Shown here one piece after another: positions 6,499 through 62,001 of a DNA stretch of 64,000 nucleotides. The position numbers and the translations under genes are program-made. The DNA lies in the NCBI GenBank assembly GCA_051294905.1, contig CM119372.1, forward strand, positions 39,496,001 through 39,560,000. Direction: 5' to 3'. The first letter of the stretch is position 1. Every line of letters starts with the position of its first letter. The stretch comes from Botryllus schlosseri. Taxonomy: Eukaryota. The notes below the pieces were generated by a model. It saw only the letters and a program-made list of their open reading frames with translations, was not told the DNA's origin and ran no database searches.

Positions 6499-6606
6499 CT
6501 GTCGAGGCATATTTTTGATGAACTTATAAATATAATTAACAGCCGTCATGTGACCCTTTCCACTTTAAACATATAGTGCTCGGTGCACATTATTATTATT
6601 TTTCAG

Positions 6607-8046
6607 AAAATATTTCGGTGCTGATTCAATCAATAACCTATAACACAATGCAAAAGACAAAGGAGAGAATTCTTGAGGACTTCGGTGCCGAGGAGCTTCG
6701 TCCACCAGATTTCGAAGTGAACCCACAGATGAGAAGAGTGAAAGGGTCGGGATATTTCAAAGGCAAATATGAACATGTGCAGGAAATGGTAGTCAAAAGG
6801 AAGACTGGATGGTTTCGGAAACAAAAGACGCAGGTTATTAAAAATCAATTTCGAAAAGAGTTTGGATTTTTCCGCCAGCAACTTGAAGATCGCGATTACA
6901 TTACACTCGGTGAGATTTTTCAAGCGGACATCTATGATAATTCCGTGACCGCCATAGTTGCTTCTGCCGGATCGGGAAAAACCACTCTCATGCGTAGAAT
7001 GGCAAGACGTTCTTGTGAGCATTCGTTTGCAAATCATGCAACCACTTCAGGCTCTCTCCAGTCAAATTATAAACTCGTACATTATGTTGAAGTAAAGGAC
7101 ATACAATGTTCGGAATCAATCAAGCCATCCAAATTTCTCTTCGGCGGAATGTTTCAAAACGTGATCGACGAGGAGCATATGTATGAATGGATGTTGAAAA
7201 ATCCATCGGAATCAATTTTATTTTTCGATGGTTTGGATCAGGCTAAATGGCAAATCAATAGTAAGGTGAACAAGAAGATCAATCCTTTTTCTTCAGCCGA
7301 CTCAGCAACGATCATGTGCAATATTCTCTCACGCAACATTCTTCCTCGTGTAAAAGTCGTCATCTCTTCGCGGGAGTTTCAAATCTCCGATTTACCGGCA
7401 GAAGCGAGACCTGAAGACATCATCACGCTTTCGGGTTTGAGTCTAGATGACGCTAAAAATCTTTTCGTGTTTCTGATAGGTCAGGACGGGGCTAAGGCAT
7501 GGGAGATGATACAAAGGATGTCCCCCAGGCTGCTCAATTTAGTCTCCATCCCTGTATTTCTTGTCCTAACTGCAGTGATAATGTCCAAGGATCCGACAAA
7601 ACCTCCTCCCAAGACGATCACCGAACTCTACAAAATAATCATCTCCACTCTGAGTGATGTGAAAAACATCATAAATGCCGACGATATCGCCGAAATTATC
7701 AAGAAATTGAAAGCGATGGCATATCGTGGTATGAAAGAAGGGAGAGTCGTATTTTATGAGAAGGATTTAGAAATGTTTGGGATCTCGAAAGAAGATGTTC
7801 GTGACCTTATGATGAAAGTTCCCGGAAATAAACTCCTCAGTCGCAATCTAGTGGAAGGCGATTTCATATTCTTTTTCTGTCATCAAAGTTTACAGGAATT
7901 TCTTGCGGCGGAGTTTGTAGCTGAAATGACGATTCGGAAGTTCATAAGCTTCAACCATAAACACCTTCACACAGAGCGATGGTCGGTCGTCCGCAGATTC
8001 GTGTGCGGAATCATTTATGACAACTCGCCAAATCAACTTCATAAAG
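6607..8046 (+). CDS. NLR-family gene, NACHT exon (NACHT NTPase, HD1, winged helix)
   Basis: Lies in ORF 6576-8069. Acceptor ttttcag|6607 and donor AAG|gtgag at 8047 (phase 1/1). Motifs: Walker A ASAGSGKTT, Walker B ILFFDGLDQ, sensor-1 VISSRE, HD1 SIPVFL, WH motif FCHQSLQEFLAA. First in-exon ATG is at 6648 (MQKTKER). Confidence 0.95.
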
Positions 8047-8149
8047 GTGAGATTCCACGTAGAATATAGACTTCGATAATGTACTTTCCTAGGTGTGTAT
8101 GTGTAATTGTGTATGTATTCATATTTCGGTACTTTCAACTCATGAATTA

Positions 8150-38483: not shown

Positions 38484-39262
38484 TTCTATATGCATCGATC
38501 TTCAAAAGATCATCGAGCATGCTATAGTAATTTAGGATTTCGTCCGTCGTGTGAGGTTCAAATGGAATTTGTATCCAGTTTATACGAAACACATCATTTG
38601 CATCGAGAGCGAATCTCGAACTTATATCGAATTACAGAAACTTCACTGAATCAGAATTAGCTTCGTCACTGTTCAGATATTCCTAGTCCAATGTCATATC
38701 GAAGGAATTATTTCAAAGTGCGTGTATTTTCTTTGAATGTTCGTTCAATTAATATGTTCTTGCACTTGCAACTTGCACGAACCACGTCACTAACGCAATT
38801 AGAAATCAAAATATAGAGAGAATTAGGAAAAGTAATGAGATTTTCGGACTCAGCGCACCTGATATGCCACTAATTCGATATAGCATATCGTGATTTTTGA
38901 AAAACCAAATTTTGTTGGCCTGGGTCCTGATTCGAACGTTTTAAGAGCCGTCACATAATCTAATTCTCACTCAACTATTCGACGGATATCGATTTCCATC
39001 CTCACACTTTACATCCGCAATTTACAATGTCAGAACGAACACCCGCTGCTGATTTCAACACCAATGAGATACATGTAACGCAGACACGAGTGCCTATTAT
39101 TGGAATAGGCTAATAAGACCAACCTACCAATTTGAATTTCCGTACCAATAATCAATAACGCAAACCGAACTGAATAATTTTAGTTTCTTTTAACTTGCTT
39201 GGAACCAAATGACCGTTTCCAAATTGCGCAATATGTTTGCGTCAGCTTAGCATAATCCATAG

Positions 39263-42200
39263 TGTTGTACCCTTTGAAAGAACTCAATGCGATCGGCTCC
39301 TAGGCTTTTATTAGCATAAAAGTAACCTAGTGTATCTGAATGCAACACGGCAATAAAACATAGTTGAAGCAGGTACAACGAACAGAAACGATGCCGCACC
39401 CAACTAGAACAGAATGAACTTAGTCACGACGCGAAGGCAATCAGAAATTAATCAGCAAAAACACCATGTAGTGGGCAAAAGGTACTGAAGCACCACAATC
39501 TCCCTCACTAATAAATGAAAGTCATTATTTAGAGCAGAGGTCTCAAACTCAAATGTGCTCGCGGGCCAATTTCCTACTTTTTGATGGCGACGCGGGCCGC
39601 AGCACCAAACATATTAGGGAATTCAATGTAGACGTTATTTGAAGGGATCTTGCAGACTGACGTTCCACGCGCATCGTGAAAATGTGATTAACTATTGTGA
39701 ATTCACGCCTGGCACGGCACAAAAAATCTCATTTTTAAATATATGAGTAAAATTGTTGCTGTACTTGGCATAGTTTGTCAAAATAATCAGTTGTAGACAC
39801 CATGCGAGAGTACAAATGCATCAGGACATCGTAAAAACTGTTGCGTTATAATTTCGCAGCGAGCAGACATTTGACGCGCCACAATTATAGGTAGAATTTG
39901 AATTATACAAAGATTGATCTGATACCAAAGCATTGGAGCAGTACAGTGCAGCCTAATCCGAGTTTCGGGCATAGGCCTACTCCTGATAACTAGGCTATAT
40001 TGATCATGTCATTACCAAAGTCAAATACTATCAGCGTTACATTTACCTTCGAAAATTGAAACAGATCAATAACAACTTGAACATAATGAATACTGTACCA
40101 TTGCGATAGAAATGTGCAATCGCCGAAGAATCCATTGGTGTTACAGCCGTGAAGCTTAGGCTACGACTACTTATTCCTCGCCACATTCAATTGGCGATAA
40201 TAACATATATGAAGATACCCAAGATGACACAGGATGTAACCAACTATACTTTAAAGGGGCAACATAATGCCAATGGCGGTTGCCATACCGACCTGCTGAG
40301 ATATCTAAATAAACTACGCAACGCAGGCTACGACCTTTTGATATTTTACTATTTCTCATACCAGTTTGATAGTTTATTGCGTCCGTGGTTGTACCAAGTC
40401 ACGGCATTCCGACTCCGAGTCACAAAATTCCTTCCCTGATTGTAACGTCTGACGCGACGAGTACGAGTAATTCCACAGAAGGTCGCGCCCTCAAGTCCAA
40501 ATCACAATTTTCAGTCACGAATCGTGTTTTACCATCATAAACAAGTAATGTCACGTAATAGTTGATCTTCCACTGCGTGGTAACTTTAGAAAGTGATGTA
40601 AGTAATAGTGAAGTTTGATGAGTTGTCTCAGGCTTCTGGAGTAGTTTTAGAGCGAATTTCAAGTTATAAAATTAAAATAAAAATTAGTAGTAAAATATTG
40701 TCCAATACTTCGAAATCCAAAATGCCGTCGCGGGCCGCACAAAATGGTCTCGCGGGCCGCGTGTTTGAGACCTCTGATTTAGAGGATTGTCCATATCGTT
40801 CAGGCGCGCGTCTGATTCTACTTGATCTTCTCAAAGGCGACACTTTTGCGAAGTTTCCAAATAATCTTCCTTGTTGGTAACGTCAGCTGTAGGTTCAACC
40901 AGAGACGAGTTGTCGACCGCTGACTGGTCCGGTTCGACAGCCTAGTCATCATCGACTGGAGACTGCTCGGTAGTGGATGGATAAGGTGCGAGGTTCTTGA
41001 CAGTGACCGTCGATTCCTACCCCGGATGGATGCCAGATCAAGGCATATTTGGAGTTAGCTTCGAGCCAATCGACTTCAATTCCGAGGGGGTCACATTTGC
41101 TTCTCCTTGCGAAGTTCCTAAGCAATACGAAGCCCCCTTGGAGTATCCAATCTGGAACCGATTCCGCGTCATACTTCTCGTACAGAAATTGAAAAATCTG
41201 TCGTGCGGGCACGAATTAGTAGTAGTACACAGAAGCAAACGGATAGAGTGAAGGGCATCAGGCAATACAGTTTCCCATGAACTTTCGGGTAATTTTCGTG
41301 AAGCTAAGAGCATTTTTACCGATCTCCAGACAGTTTGATTCAAACGCTCACAGTGAGAGATTCCAGTGGGATGGTAGGCCTACGGAGTAATTTTGCTCGT
41401 TGCTATGCCGTTGCGGGTGAAAAACGCCGTTACTTCCTTCGATAAGAACGAATTTAAACGATCGCCGTGAACATATTCTGGCAGACCGAACTAGGAAAAT
41501 AAATCAGTGAGACAATTAACAACCGTAGCTGAAGTCATATCTCGGCATGGATAGGCAAACGGATATCTGCTGTATTCGTCAACAATTACGAGCAGGTACT
41601 GTCGAGATCCTTCGACAGGGCCTTGGAAATCAAAACTTATTCCATACCACGGCCTAGTCAATTGGATGAGACGGTGACGGAAGTTTGATTTATAGAGTCA
41701 CGGTTTGATTTCCGAGCATATTCTGCAGTTACCGAAGATCTCTCTGACTTCATCTATAGAGAAAGGCAAGTTTTTCGCTCTAATAAAATGATGCAACTGT
41801 CGCACCCCGGTATGAGCAGGAGCTTCGTGCACATGATTGAGAGACAAGCCCGAGTTTGGCAAAGAGCAGCATACACGAGAAAATGTATCCGGAACAACAT
41901 TCTCAGTACCAGGACAATGAAATGTTTCATACTTAGAGGCGCTCAATTCGAGTTTTCACGCCGACAATTTAGCATTTTTGATTTTACTATCGTGAGTTTT
42001 GCTGAATATGAATGACAACGCTTTTTGATCGGTAACACGGCGGAACTTGTTGCGGTGAAGCAAGTAACCCATTTTTGTTTAGCCTCAATAATAGCGAGGG
42101 CCTCTTTTTCAACGATATTGTGCTTCGACTCGCATTCGGAAAGAGTATGCGACATGAACACTGCAGGTCTGCCTCTTTGACTTATAGTATGGCGGCGATA

Positions 42201-44483
42201 GCCACGTCGGAAGCATCACAAGCAACCTCGAAAGGCTCGTCGTCATATCTACAGCTTGGGCAAGCACCTATAAGACTATTTTTCAACGATTTGATAGCCT
42301 CGAGTTAATCGGTTTTTAACGGGAATTCATTGTTTCTAGTTAATGGTTTCGCCTTTTCCAAAAACAAAGGTATCCTTTAGAAAGCTTCGAAAGCTGTTAA
42401 AGGACGGTCAGACGGGCGAAGCGGCACCTGATGATAGGCGTCGCTTTTTCAGAAAACGAAGGTATCCTTTCGAAAGCTTCAAAAGCTGTTAAAGGACGGT
42501 CGGACGGGCGAAGCGGCACCTGATGATAGGCGGATTTCAGATCGATGGTGCTATATACCGTTCCTTTTGCGACTTCCTTCACACAATGCTCGATATTAGG
42601 TAGCGGATACGCATCCAAGGGTGTATATCTATTAATAGTTCCAGAGTAGTCGATCACTAAGCGCGTTCATCTTTCGTCACCAGAACCTGAGGCCGCCACG
42701 GAGAGACCGACTTCTCTATGACATATTCTTCCAGTAATCTTGACACCTCTTCTTTGGTGAATTTGGCATCATCGGAGCAATAATTTTGTGATTTCACAGC
42801 GATTGGATCGACATTCCTATCTACGAAGCGGAATATCTTAGGTGTCTCCGTAATCTTAGCGCTAGCGACGGAACAGTGAGATTCACCGATAATCAAGTCG
42901 TTTCGAGGCCCGTTGAAATTGAAAATGACGGTCTTGTGAGTTCTCAGAAACTCCAATCCTAAGATCACATCCGCGCACAAGTTGTTTACGACTCCAAAAA
43001 GTGTTTCGCTGTATTTCTGATCCTGTATTGTGAATGACAAAGTAACGTGCCCCAATACTTTGGAGGTGGAATCCTTCGATGCCAGAGTAATAGTGGATTC
43101 CGGTCCGTGCAGAGGGAGTGCGAGCGAATTAGCAAAATACAGTCTCATAAAGCATTCGTAAGCCCCCCCCCCCACCGAGTCGACCAGCGCCTCTATAGCC
43201 AATCCTGCTATAGTGATAATGATAGCCAGTATTTAAGTGATTTCGGTACTCGAATCAACAGGAAAGCTAGATCTGCCACTTCGGCGGAATTAAACGTCAC
43301 GGCACCGGCTCCACCGGCGACTAGAAATGCAAAATAAGAGGCTTTATCATAATCGAACGCTGGCGCAGTAATCTTCCGTTCTGAGTACCATTCTTGCATG
43401 CGTTAGGAAAAGGGCCTTTATATCCACATTTATAGCACTCAGCGTTTTTCGCGGGACAGACCTTTCGCAGAGGGTTGACTGCCGCAATATCGGCAATTCT
43501 TGTATCGTTTGGTAACAATTGCAACTTCACCGGTACCCTCAGTCGTTATATGAACTTAATCGCTACTAGTCGTTCGTTCAGATCCTATAGCACTCACGGT
43601 GGCAGGGACGGGAATCTATATGGTCTCGTAGGAAGACGCAAACTGCTGAGCTCGCTCGAGAGATTCGGCTACCTTAACCACTTTGTCTAATGTCATATCA
43701 TCGTGCTCTAATAATCTAAGACGAATCGTAGGCGAACGTAAGCCAGTTATCGAGGCGTTACGAACTGCTTCATTCTGATGCTCGTCGGCATTCACAGCAG
43801 CGAATATGCGATCTTCAGCGAGAGTGAGCAATTTTAGTGATACATCGGTGACGCTTTCTCCTTGATCCGACGAGCGGTGGCTTAGAGGTGTCTTGGAGTA
43901 GATCAAGTTCTTCGTTATCTTGTAGAGCTTGCATAGCGTCTCAAAAGCGAATTCATACGTAGCGAGGTGTTCTAAAAGATAACACATCCGGCGATATATA
44001 TCCGTATATAATAGCCAATTTATCTATAGTCACTTCAGCTGGAGGGTCAGAATCCGATCGATTGGGAGCCGTTGAGTTTGAAGCGGAAGCCTGCGCGGCA
44101 ACTAAGAATTTTCCAAACATCTTCTCCCAATGATTGAATATCTTCTGTGAGTCAGCCGAGCTGGGCATCACTTCCAGAACTGGCACACGTATGTACTTTT
44201 CTTGAGAGAACGCCATGTTGAGATGACGATTTATGTTAATAAAATTGTTGTACCCTTTGATAGAACTCAATACGATCGGTTCCTAGGCTTTTATTAACAT
44301 AAAAGTAAGCTAGTGTATCGAAATACAACACGGCAATAGAACAGAGTTAAAACAGGTACAACGAACAGAAACGATGCCGCACCCAACTAATACAGAATGA
44401 ACTTGATAGTCACGACGTAAAGGCAATCAGAAAGCAATCAGAAAAAACACCATCTAGTGGGCAAAAGGTACTGAAGCACCACA
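39263..44483 (-). mobile_element. Full-length decayed Ty3/Gypsy LTR retrotransposon without a tRNA PBS
   Basis: LTRs 39263-39497 and 44246-44483. 5-bp TSD CATAG at 39258-39262 and 44484-44488. PPT AGTGAGGGAGAT. gag fragments 43321-44216, PR ALVDS, RT IDYSGTINRYT and IDLKSAYHQV, RH VACDASD and IVEKEALAI, IN H..AH..C..C. Confidence 0.93.
39535..40776. mobile_element. hAT element (TIR CAGAGGTCTCAAAC) nested at the 3' end of the second Gypsy element
   Basis: Perfect 14-bp TIR. Perfect TSD ATTTAGAG. Confidence 0.92.
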
Positions 44484-45370
44484 CATAGGATGCAGAAATC
44501 TAATACTAAATATATTTTACAGTTTGTAAGATATCTCTCGTTTTAGTGATTCGACTAAAGAGTGATGCCTGGGAGCTCCTTGACTACACATTCTATGCCA
44601 GGTGAGTCGTATTATTCGCTAAGTCTGACCGTTCGAAAATGAGAATTGAGACGTATCCTTCCATTTAGTGGTCAATCAATTCTCACTGTCTTCCTGATCT
44701 TTGGCGCGAAATAAACTGTTGTGGATCTGACATTCACAACTAAAAACTCTAAATACAAACTACGTCATAGCTATCCACGTTCTTGATTGGCAACTAAGTA
44801 TTGCACTGTACAGTACCGGCGATAAAATGTAGGCGTGTAGCGGAACGTTATGTTACGGCCGAAAACTTTGAGAATTGAGAAGTCGATATGTATTTAGATT
44901 TTCGGAATAAGTGTGGCAGTCACATTCGATTATTATTAGTTGTAATTAATTCTAAACTACTTACGATGAATTGCCTTATCAATGGTGGGGCTTGGCCCGC
45001 TTGTGCCTCAATTTTCGTTTCGAGCTTTATTTTTCGAACAATAAATACTAGATTTTACAGAGAAAATATGGTGTACACGAGGAATCCCATGTAGTGAGTT
45101 AGAATTAGGACTTCCATGACGTCACGAGTTTAGAATTGTGATGTAACAGTTGATTGGCATGTATGGCTCTTTGGGAGTTGAGATGGAAAAAATAGGACCA
45201 ATATGGCTCTTCGGACAAAAAAGGTTCCCGACCACTGGTATAGACGGTCCTTAGTTTACTTTTTGATGCTGAATCCAAAACTGTTATCCGTTTTCTTCAA
45301 TCAGGTCTACTTTATTGACAAATTGCATTTGAATTTTCGAAAACTGCAGATTTCAGCGTTATGCGATTAA

Positions 45371-47386: not shown

Positions 47387-49464
47387 CAGGGCTGTGGAGT
47401 CGGTAAATTTTACCACCGACTCCGGCTCCGACTCCGACTCCACACATTTTCAATATACCGACTCCGACTCCGACTCCGACTCCTGAGTCTTTAAATGTAC
47501 CGACTCCGACTCCGACTCCGACTCCTGGGTCTTTAAACGTGCCGACTCCGACTCCGACTCCGACTCCAGCATTATTACCAATTTACCTCGAAAATTATAT
47601 GCCACATTGTCGGTTGAATGACTATCATACAACCATTAAACATATGCAAACATATGATTAACTGTGGCATGCTGAATTGTTTCATTGTGGCACAGCTCGA
47701 ATTATCCACTATGCAATTAACATGAAATAAAGATTTGCTAAATATCCTTCCTTATTCAAGTTTTTATAACATGGACTCTCTAATATCCTGAAATGTATGA
47801 ATCATTCAAATATGGCAGATATACAATCCTGTATAATAAAAATGTAGATAAAAAATCCAAGTGTAGGTCTTGTGTATGACTCAGCAACTGATAAAGAAAT
47901 TGAACTTACTAATTTTGTCATTACACACTATCCTGATTACAAGCGCAAACACTCTTACTACTAGTAATAGACATTGGTCATAAATGGAATTTAGTTAAGT
48001 AGTCAAAGACCATAGCCTATGTCTATTCTACATGTACTTAATCAAGTATTCAAGGATTGGGACTTGCAGTCTTTCTTAATCATTTGTTCGACCCAAACAG
48101 CTAAGCTACACTACAAATATTTTTAATTTTGTCAAATGGGAAGCATCGTTTGGTCATATTTACATATTTTTACAATTTTACAAAACCAGCCGATGCATTT
48201 TCTCTGTCACAGTATCATGTTATAATTCCAAAAAATGCATCAATTTTGACTGCATCGCGAAAACGCATCTAGCGATTTTCTTCCCCTCTGCAACTGAGTT
48301 GTAATTTGCAAGTAATGTCTTTTATCTATATCAGGGGTGGGCAACTTTTTCGGCGAAAGGGACACCATAGATTTACGAGCCATTGCGCGGGCAACGGGAT
48401 TGTTGACAATCTTTTTTTAGTCGTCGATGGGAGCGAACCGAATTATGAAACATTGCAAACAAGACTTATATTACTACGCTCTAAAATTGATAACATTATG
48501 TCATCCAACTGTGCAGTTCGTAATCAGGCCCAGGTCGCGCGAAGCGCGAAATTTTTTTGCAAGATAACGACTGAATTAGGCTATAGCTATATCAATAAAT
48601 ATGTCGCTAACATGCATTGGGGGTCGCATCTGTATACCACTGGGCTCATTTAGCAAGGACAGGATTATTCGAAGTTTAGACATAGCAAAATCGACGGTAT
48701 TAGTGAACATGCCTCTATCATTTTTTGCAAATGTTTTGTCGACGATCTCGCTGCGAGTGCACAAGCGAAGCCGTATCTCCTAATTGCGAATATAGTTAGA
48801 CTCAATTCTGTGAAGAATATGTTTTTATAATTTTCAAAAGGGGGCTAAAATACTGAATGCAAGAAATCTAGTGACAATGAATCATGCGAAGTTCCGAGAA
48901 AAATTTCAAGTCAAATAAATCTGCTATGAAATATTCTACTTCATGGTCATATACGAAGATCTGGGATAAATGTGGCTGACCCCTGGATACGTCAATGCCT
49001 CAGAACTGTTGTTTTAGTCATCATCAAATTTCTCGGTCATGCTAACCAAATTTTCGTTGGCCTTGCAATTGTACCTGATGTCATAAATAATTTCGAGAAT
49101 TACCTCGCAGGCCACACCTAACCTTCTCGTGTGCCAAATTTGGCCTGCGTGCCACGGGCTGGCCGCACCTGATCTGTATGGTTAATAATAACAGTGATTG
49201 GTGGTACATAAAAATTATATTGAAAATTCTTTGAAAGCAAATGTTTTCCTGATAGAGAAGTTGGAGTCGGAGTCGGAGTCGAAATCATAGTCATTCTCAC
49301 AAACTCCGACTCCGACTCCAGTCAGTATTTTCCCACCGACCCCGACTCCGACTCCGACTCCAGCTATTACAGTTTTCACGACTCCGACTCCGACTCCGAC
49401 TCCATCAAGCGAAAATTACTCCGACTCCGACTCCACCGACTCCGACTCCGACTCCACAGCCCTG
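47387..49464. mobile_element. hAT element with (GACTCC)n subterminal arrays; nested 48332-49171 (TSD ATCT(A/G)TAT)
   Basis: TIR CAGGGCTGTGGAGTCGG. Perfect TSD GCTTATAT. Confidence 0.92.
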
Positions 49465-60801: not shown

Positions 60802-62001
60802 CAGAGGTCTCAAACACGCGGGCCGCATGCGGCCCGCCGGAGCATTTTGTGCGGCCCGCGTGAACATTTTAGATTTTTAATAATTTGACAATATATAAGT
60901 GTCACATATATCTTTTCAGGTTATAAAGTCAAAATTCCCTCTTAAATTGCTCCAAAAGCCTGAAACTATTCGTTAAACTTCACTATCACATCTATTACAC
61001 ACGCTACCATGAAGGGGAAGATTCACTATTTCACCACATTTCCAATTCATGATGACAAAACCTGACCCTTAGACGATTCGTGACTGAAATTTGTGAGTTG
61101 GAATTGGACGCGACCTTTCTTAGAATTACTCAGACTCGGGCTAACTCGATGGCAAAATGAAAATGACTCCAGTTGACTCGGAGTGACTAGGAATGCCGTG
61201 AATTTGTAAGAATCGTGGACGCAACAAACTAATCGCGTATCAGGGTAATAGTAATAGATCAGAAGGTCGCAGCTTGGTATTTTGCCAACCAAGCAATTAG
61301 TGATGGCAACCATGGGCAATCTGTTAGTTACATCTTTGGTCGCTAAACCATGTTATTAAGGCCACTTCAAGGTACTGAGTACCGTAGTGGTACGCTCCAA
61401 CGATGTAACAATAATGGGCCGTTCGGCGTTCCGACAATTCAATCACTAAGACACATTCATTAATATATTTATATCTTATTCATATTTTTTTCTGCTCCTG
61501 TATTTGAAGATATTTGGCCATGAGACTAATAGCCTACATATCAGAAGTACACCCGAATCCTGGATTGGAATTACAGTGCTTAACCTAAAAATGTTTTGAT
61601 ATCAGATCAGTCTCTAATATCAATCTGTTAAATTCAAAATATTCATAGTAGATGGAAAATTATAATCCGATAGCCTTTATGATGGCATCATACATTTGTC
61701 CGCCCATATGGTGTCTATATCTTATAATTATTATATATCAGATACAACAACAATTCTATTCAAATAGTTATAAATGTGAAGATTCTTTTCGTGCCAGGCC
61801 TAAATTGATACAAGAGCAAATCACATTTTGGCGATGTGTGTTTACTGTCAGTCTGCTGGATCGGCTCACTTTCAATAGGACAATTCATTCCCGCCAAATA
61901 AGGCCTACTAGGAAAGACATATAATACCCCTAGTGCTGCGGCCCGAGGCGTATTCAAACGGGAAAACTGGCCCGTGAGCACATTTGAGTTTGAGACCTCT
62001 G
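60802..62001. mobile_element. hAT element (TIR CAGAGGTCTCAAAC) abutting the FReD stop codon
   Basis: Perfect 14-bp TIR. TSD ATCTACAC/ATCTACAT. Confidence 0.9.

Follow-up and report, generated by a model that had tools for sequence, protein, structure and literature searches.

The window analysed here, 64,000 nucleotides of Botryllus schlosseri DNA, contains on its minus strand a compact Ty3/Gypsy retrotransposon with an LTR at each end. The whole element reads from 44483 to 39263, and its main parts, together with one later insertion, are as follows.

44484..44488, minus strand: TSD of 5 bp, CTATG; its other copy is at 39258-39262, so that the duplication flanks the element on both sides
44246..44483, minus strand: 5' LTR, 238 bp, starting TGTGGTG and ending TACAACA
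40777..44216, minus strand: gag-pol region (gag, PR, RT, RH, IN), interrupted by stops and frameshifts
39535..40776, no strand assigned: later insertion of about 1.2 kb, bounded by terminal inverted repeats; its target duplication is 8 bp long
39498..39509, minus strand: polypurine tract, adjoining the 3' LTR, read from the sequence
39263..39497, minus strand: 3' LTR, 235 bp, with one mismatch in the arm discussed below (39320-39306)

The copy in the window is old, broken and dead. Its two LTRs are 91.5% identical over ungapped columns, about 380 bp are missing from its RT, and a stretch of 92 bp is tandemly duplicated (42349-42532). Elements of this type are about 4.3 kb long, with a single gag-pol frame and a 5-bp TSD, and they are recognized as Ty3/Gypsy by LTRs of the form TG...CA, the TSD, the polypurine tract and the order PR-RT-RH-IN, an order read from a copy at another place in the genome whose frame is naturally uninterrupted. 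Among proteins of solved structure the best relative is the RT of Ty3 (E 3e-52). The genome (495.5 Mb) holds at least 23 copies of the family with a 5' LTR and leader, and four of the eight full-length copies retain an uninterrupted frame of about 1,250 codons in which PR, RT, RH and IN follow one another in Gypsy order.

The insertion at 39535..40776 is presumably hAT-like, judging from its inverted repeats and 8-bp duplication. The window has two copies of this 1.2-kb element (39535-40776 and 60802-62001), which share their terminal inverted repeat and are each bordered by target duplications of 8 bp; one of them lies inside the Gypsy element. Elsewhere in the window, a 509-codon open frame on the plus strand (6540-8069) encodes NACHT and NOD2 winged-helix domains, that is, an exon of an NLR-type immune receptor, and arrays of 42-nt units based on CTCCGA repeats lie at 47407-47567 and 49285-49403.

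The subject of this report is the junction at which the 5' LTR meets the internal region. On the minus strand the LTR is followed by one A (44245) and then, in place of a TGG-type PBS, by TTTTATTAACATAAA (44244-44230). This 15-mer is the exact reverse complement of TTTATGTTAATAAAA within the LTR (44303-44289), with no extension of the pairing on either side. The two arms are 44 nt apart, AATAAA lies within the LTR arm at 44295-44290, and the gag ATG at 44216 leaves a leader of only about 30 nt. An earlier note on this DNA had pointed out the pair, its spacing, the AATAAA, the ATG, the single mismatch in the 3' LTR and the missing TGG, and re-examination of the sequence bears out every one of these observations. 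The features on which the following discussion depends are listed here.

44289..44303, minus strand: LTR arm, a candidate self-primer, whose 3' end pairs with the first PBS base
44289..44299, minus strand: 11-nt core of the arm; the register across 34 aligned rows is A or T, G, Y, Y at the start and AAA at the end
44285..44288, minus strand: GCCT, the four bases that follow the arm; would form the 5' side of a second short stem, with a putative cut site at its border with the arm
44252..44255, minus strand: GGGT, shortly before the LTR ends; predicted to pair with GCC(T) in the second stem
44230..44244, minus strand: PBS position; its 15 nt are complementary to part of the element's own LTR and lie 1 nt past the LTR end, with no TGG

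A pair of this kind might be a chance inverted repeat in AT-rich DNA: the helix has only one G/C pair, and the fold of a wider stretch reaches a z of only -1.8, with 14 of 200 shuffles as good. The fold of 44303-44214 itself has z = -3.07 (2 of 200 shuffles as good), and not one of 1000 dinucleotide shuffles of the window LTR produced a 15-bp helix (mean 4.3, maximum 10). Within the family, the perfect 15-mer pair is present in 17 of the 23 5'-LTR copies, with point changes in the other six. Considering that no shuffle reproduces the helix, that all the families described below pair with other letters, and that 18 control elements lack it, the likelihood of a chance origin is negligible.

Further evidence comes from comparison among related families of the same genome. 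Two gag searches added 60 loci to the eight full-length copies, for a total of 68, from which 13 families were separated by eye and one good copy per family was taken; the LTR ends were fixed by the direct repeat, independently of the helix. In all 13 families, Watson-Crick pairing of the PBS position with the family's own LTR is perfect over 12-19 bp, and for each of them none of 1000 shuffles gave a helix as long. The mean helix of a PBS with its own LTR is 15.0 bp, versus 6.9 bp with the LTRs of other families, where the single value of 15 bp belongs to two families that share the same arm. Compensatory changes are seen in L069 (GTCAATAAAA/TTTTATTGAC), L073 (GTGAATAAAA/TTTTATTCAC) and L076 (GTTAGTAAAA/TTTTACTAAC), and the arms of L085, L109 and L114 are of wholly different sequence. 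The covariation that the earlier note had proposed looking for is thus present, with the helix kept and its letters changed.

An automated scan of the same loci, from which 3 of the 68 were dropped for want of a gag N-terminus, found a helix of at least 11 bp in 48 of 65. In each of the 17 misses the copy is mutated, rearranged or mis-anchored, and TGG is found at the LTR end in none of them. The scan also raised 'ACA..TGG' flags as candidates for a PBS; we rejected these, as the motif lies within the LTR of family I. In family F (L078/L079) the pairing of arm and PBS resumes beyond an interruption and reaches about 20 nt, its end being rich in GC; this is longer than in other families and may record a longer primer. 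One of these loci, L079 (G000:C10:3648000-3657500), consists of nested or tandem family F copies within a 5.9-kb duplication.

The same arrangement was found outside this genome. Among 65 metagenome loci, 36 were dropped for lack of a gag N-terminus, and 27 of the remaining 29 had enough upstream DNA, two more being dropped on that account. A helix of 11-18 bp was found in 22 of these 27; shuffles reached 11 bp or more in 0 of 1040 cases, and the five misses appear by eye to be near-matches with point changes. Of seven loci in genome_contigs, three lacked the gag N-terminus and the other four all agree, which brings the count to 26 of 31 testable outside loci with a self-helix of at least 11 bp. 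Two of the outside loci, L202 and L209, belong to one family and differ by one compensatory pair. Clade members occur in contigs filed as bacterial metagenome-assembled genomes (L275-L281); these are most likely host contamination and were counted only as extra loci. The search of viral_contigs gave one unrelated Gypsy locus, and that of the ESM Atlas returned only unnamed arthropod gag clusters. L274, from a viral-collection contig, has a Gypsy pol followed by a 711-codon frame that is envelope-type in look, and it was used only as a row in the tree. Taking the families inside and outside this genome together, the self-complementary PBS is a clade-wide trait, and the relatives, like the window element, have no TGG-type PBS.

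Other Gypsy elements of this genome served as controls. Twenty loci were examined, and in all 18 with an LTR pair the self-helix was at most 5 bp. TGG lies within a few bases of the LTR end in 16 of the 18, the boundary being unclear in the other two. Two loci of one control family (L257, L260) have TGG about 9 nt past the apparent LTR end, versus 0-4 nt elsewhere. The second Gypsy element of the window, on the minus strand from 19445 to about 29330 (about 9.9 kb, insertions included, with 94% identity between its LTRs), likewise carries a TGG-type PBS, which follows a 5' LTR with an internal duplication. We take the control elements to be Mag, CsRn1 and Osvaldo/Gmr1-like, labels that we assigned from motifs. 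Like the clade they are animal, non-chromovirus Gypsy elements of similar size from the same genome, and the CsRN1 end motif, as given in a table of PMC3601003, fits the LTR start TGTGGTG of the clade. They differ in their TGG-type PBS and lack of a self-helix, and their RT-RH is only about 30% identical and falls outside the clade.

Could a host tRNA fragment or another small RNA be the primer, the match to the LTR being incidental? Half-tRNA priming is known in Ty1/copia lineages (passages of PMC6317226). The comparison with host tRNAs, which the earlier note had recommended, gave no match within the partial set it covered: the longest complement to the PBS was 4-6 nt among 34 tRNA genes of only four isotypes, from an Rfam tRNA search that scored only 63 candidates, and no tRNA gene lay near genomic copies of the 15-mer at the 26 loci scanned (88 matches, 30 fetched). 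Since the PBS of every family is matched by that family's own LTR, priming by such a host RNA is very improbable.

The detailed architecture of the helix was studied in 34 non-redundant rows, 13 from this genome and 21 from outside, after near-duplicates were merged. As a helix of at least 11 bp was required of the outside rows, and the 13 own rows had been chosen by eye for being good copies, full pairing at positions 1-11 is partly by construction; moreover, the rows are related, and the permutation and shuffle values given here are therefore not probabilities. In 32 of 34 rows the PBS starts 1 nt past the LTR; in the other two the distance is 2 nt. The 3' end of the arm pairs with the first base of the PBS, which is the polarity needed by a primer. 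AAA closes the arm in 30 of 34 rows, and in 30 of 34 the next bases are GCC or ACC (RCC). A conserved block starts 11 nt before the end of the arm, with A (26 rows) or T (8 rows) at +1, G at +2 in 30 of 34, and then two pyrimidines; upstream of it the information drops to a T-rich background. Within positions 1-11, seven positions show three or four Watson-Crick pair types. Positions 12-16 pair in a family-specific manner well above permutations (62/68 and 64/102), and pairing is at chance level from position 17 onward. A primer of exactly 11 nt, beginning at an initiator-like A, was considered and is kept only as a lower bound given the pairing at positions 12-16, which implies that the RNA must often start further upstream.

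The helix is very AU-rich, with 1-4 G/C per arm, and the loop between the arms varies from 21 to 69 nt across rows. Beside it, a second stem of the form RCC(W)/(W)GGY is predicted, its partner strand lying at a variable distance. When G-U pairs are counted this stem averages 4.15 bp, versus 2.98 in shuffles (0/1000 as high); with Watson-Crick pairs only the signal is weak, at 2.62 versus 2.18, with a shuffle maximum of 2.65.

No TATA-like peak is seen at -25 to -31 across the rows. In Ciona, transcription starts mostly at CA, TA or TG according to passages of PMC4691747, and such steps are present in the arm, though they are common in AT-rich DNA. Four RNA runs gave 14, 33, 53 and 0 reads on a family copy, and these 100 reads, too few to map ends, show no pile-up of starts or ends and no loose poly(A) end.

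As an alternative or additional role for the helix, the earlier note had suggested that it hides the poly(A) signal in the 5' LTR; if that were its only role, priming would follow some other, unseen route. Such an effect would be specific to the 5' copy, as the partner strand exists only after the 5' LTR, and a canonical hexamer does lie inside the arm in 22 of 34 rows, the window element included. However, the hexamer is only downstream in four rows and is absent from both arm and loop in eight, and these 12 rows (among them families I and J, with an AATAAA apart from the helix, and loci L190 and L208) keep the helix and its register all the same, so that hiding the signal is not the general cause of the helix. 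Nor does hiding call for a spacer fixed at 1 nt or for an AAA/RCC junction that stays in place, and it would provide the element with no primer site. We therefore regard this explanation of the helix as improbable; hiding may at most be a side benefit in families in which hexamer and helix overlap.

A Tf1-like self-priming reaction is the best reading of the window element and its clade, and we consider it likely to be right. What the sequences show is the lack of a tRNA-type PBS, a covarying helix with the element's own LTR, a fixed register, and a conserved junction. Tf1 RNA anneals its first 11 nt to the PBS and is cleaved by RNase H behind base 11 (passages of PMC7175516), and the priming complex is a three-duplex ('pretzel') fold around the PBS (passages of PMC10085805). 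By analogy, transcription of the window element would start in the LTR, either at the arm or shortly upstream of it (about 44299-44305), and the 5' end of the RNA would fold onto the PBS as a helix of 11-16 bp stacked on the short RCC/GGY stem. A cut after AAA, between 44289 and 44288, would probably be made by the RNase H of RT as in Tf1. RT would then continue from the freed 3' end, copying the 1-nt spacer and after it the final 43 nt of the LTR, and the resulting strong-stop DNA of about 44 nt would jump to a short repeat at the RNA's 3' end. The poly(A) site of this RNA would lie slightly downstream of the same arm. During plus-strand synthesis the primer would be copied back into the PBS, which would preserve the perfect match between the arms.

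The arm might instead prime from another RNA end, such as the 3' R copy, a dimer partner or a short LTR transcript ending at AAA, with no Tf1-like fold and no RNase H cut. The arm sequence is present in both LTRs and ends in AAA beside or within the poly(A) signal, and the 100 RNA reads gave no mapped start. We nevertheless think such a primer unlikely, considering that arm and PBS are separated in the 5' leader by the RCC/GGY stem, which suits a fold in cis, and that pairing falls to chance past position 16, as if the RNA began there. Moreover, priming from the genome's own 3' end would presumably consume the repeat needed for the first strand jump.

Self-priming as we propose it has a close precedent in Tf1/sushi. 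Tf1 and Tf2 of Schizosaccharomyces pombe, Tj1 of S. japonicus and the Tf1/sushi group of chromoviruses share the order PR-RT-RH-IN with the clade. In Tf1/sushi, as in the clade, the PBS is complementary to the element's own LTR and not to a tRNA; a further stem lies beside the primer helix, and the 11-nt primer of Tf1 equals the conserved 11-nt core of the clade in length (passages of PMC7175516, PMC10085805 and PMC4600332). The clade differs in its helix of 11-19 bp, which is AU-rich and often lies over the poly(A) hexamer, in its leader of only about 30 nt, in the lack of a chromodomain and in having its own RT-RH branch, the last two compared through proxies.

These proxies for Tf1/sushi were proteins with a chromodomain, taken from fungi, algae, a fish and a frog. 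The profiles for the chromodomain and the Tf2-1-like SH3 (PF00385 and PF24626, E 0.01) matched none of 38 clade proteins, and both matched three proxy proteins; a search of this genome with PF24626 gave no match, nor did its control. In the RT-RH tree, from which three rows were dropped for short coverage, the 31 clade rows are grouped together at SH-aLRT 100, the branch leading to them is long, and the tRNA-primed controls fall elsewhere. Six of the 31 (Ciona, Styela and four moths) are known from protein alone, with no PBS visible. The nearest named relatives are from Styela clava, followed by moths, Ciona and a shrimp. The clade is separate from 13 chromovirus proxies (SH-aLRT 100 and 99, in unrooted quick trees), and a union of the two is rejected at an AU p of 0.016 in a quick unrooted tree of 25 rows with a long stem branch and proxies for Tf1/sushi. 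The RT phylogeny proposed in the earlier note thus places the clade outside the chromoviruses, as far as proxies represent them. Judged by its sequence, the clade would work like Tf1 and yet lies outside Tf1/sushi.

The clade may be the Cigr-1 clade. Its size, single frame and short LTRs agree with those of Cigr-1 of Ciona intestinalis, and the Ciona protein XP_026689427.1 falls inside the clade. A Cigr-1 clade is reported from a tunicate and from molluscs in passages of PMC6238403, which are silent on the PBS.

How much of this is new? Repbase notes are said to call some animal Gypsy elements self-primed; a literature search for such notes found nothing. In the full-text literature searched, a scope with most subscription papers, Repbase and GyDB outside it, the passages found describe no self-priming in a non-chromovirus animal Gypsy. 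Self-priming animal Gypsy elements as such are already described, namely vertebrate Tf1/sushi (passages of PMC6317226 and PMC10085805). Of the animal self-priming lineage suggested in the earlier note, the signature stands, with priming itself the probable explanation. Self-priming has also been predicted outside Tf1/sushi, from complementarity of LTR and PBS, for the Gypsy element Tcn1 and the plant Copia elements TAR, Houba and Osr-1 (passages of PMC6317226); like the clade, Tcn1 and TAR are predicted self-primers, but Tcn1 is a chromovirus and TAR a Copia element, and both are plant or fungal. A PBS figure on Saci2 elements with a variable PBS, in the supplement of PMC12471100, may bear on the question. 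What appears new here is the signature of self-priming in a different, non-chromovirus clade of animal Gypsy elements.

A more specific proposal is that this clade gained self-priming independently of Tf1/sushi, with a single AAA+RCC signal in the LTR, built on the 11-nt core, serving as RNA start, primer and mostly also poly(A) signal, and with RT cutting at the junction of the two helices. We would put this fuller version at about an even chance of being correct.

The clade represents a variant of a known mechanism and no new kind of system. Animal LTR elements are taken to be primed by tRNA as a rule, the Gypsy exception being Tf1/sushi, and a second, distant and widespread self-priming clade, if real, would mean that the mechanism either arose repeatedly or is old and was lost many times. 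Annotation tools that demand a tRNA PBS would under-call such elements. The covarying helix and the fixed AAA/RCC junction lead to base-level predictions of start and cut sites, and the dozens of natural variants could be used to study how RT recognizes an RNA-RNA duplex. If these elements do prime themselves, the clade would presumably also escape control by tRNA supply and by 3' tRNA fragments.
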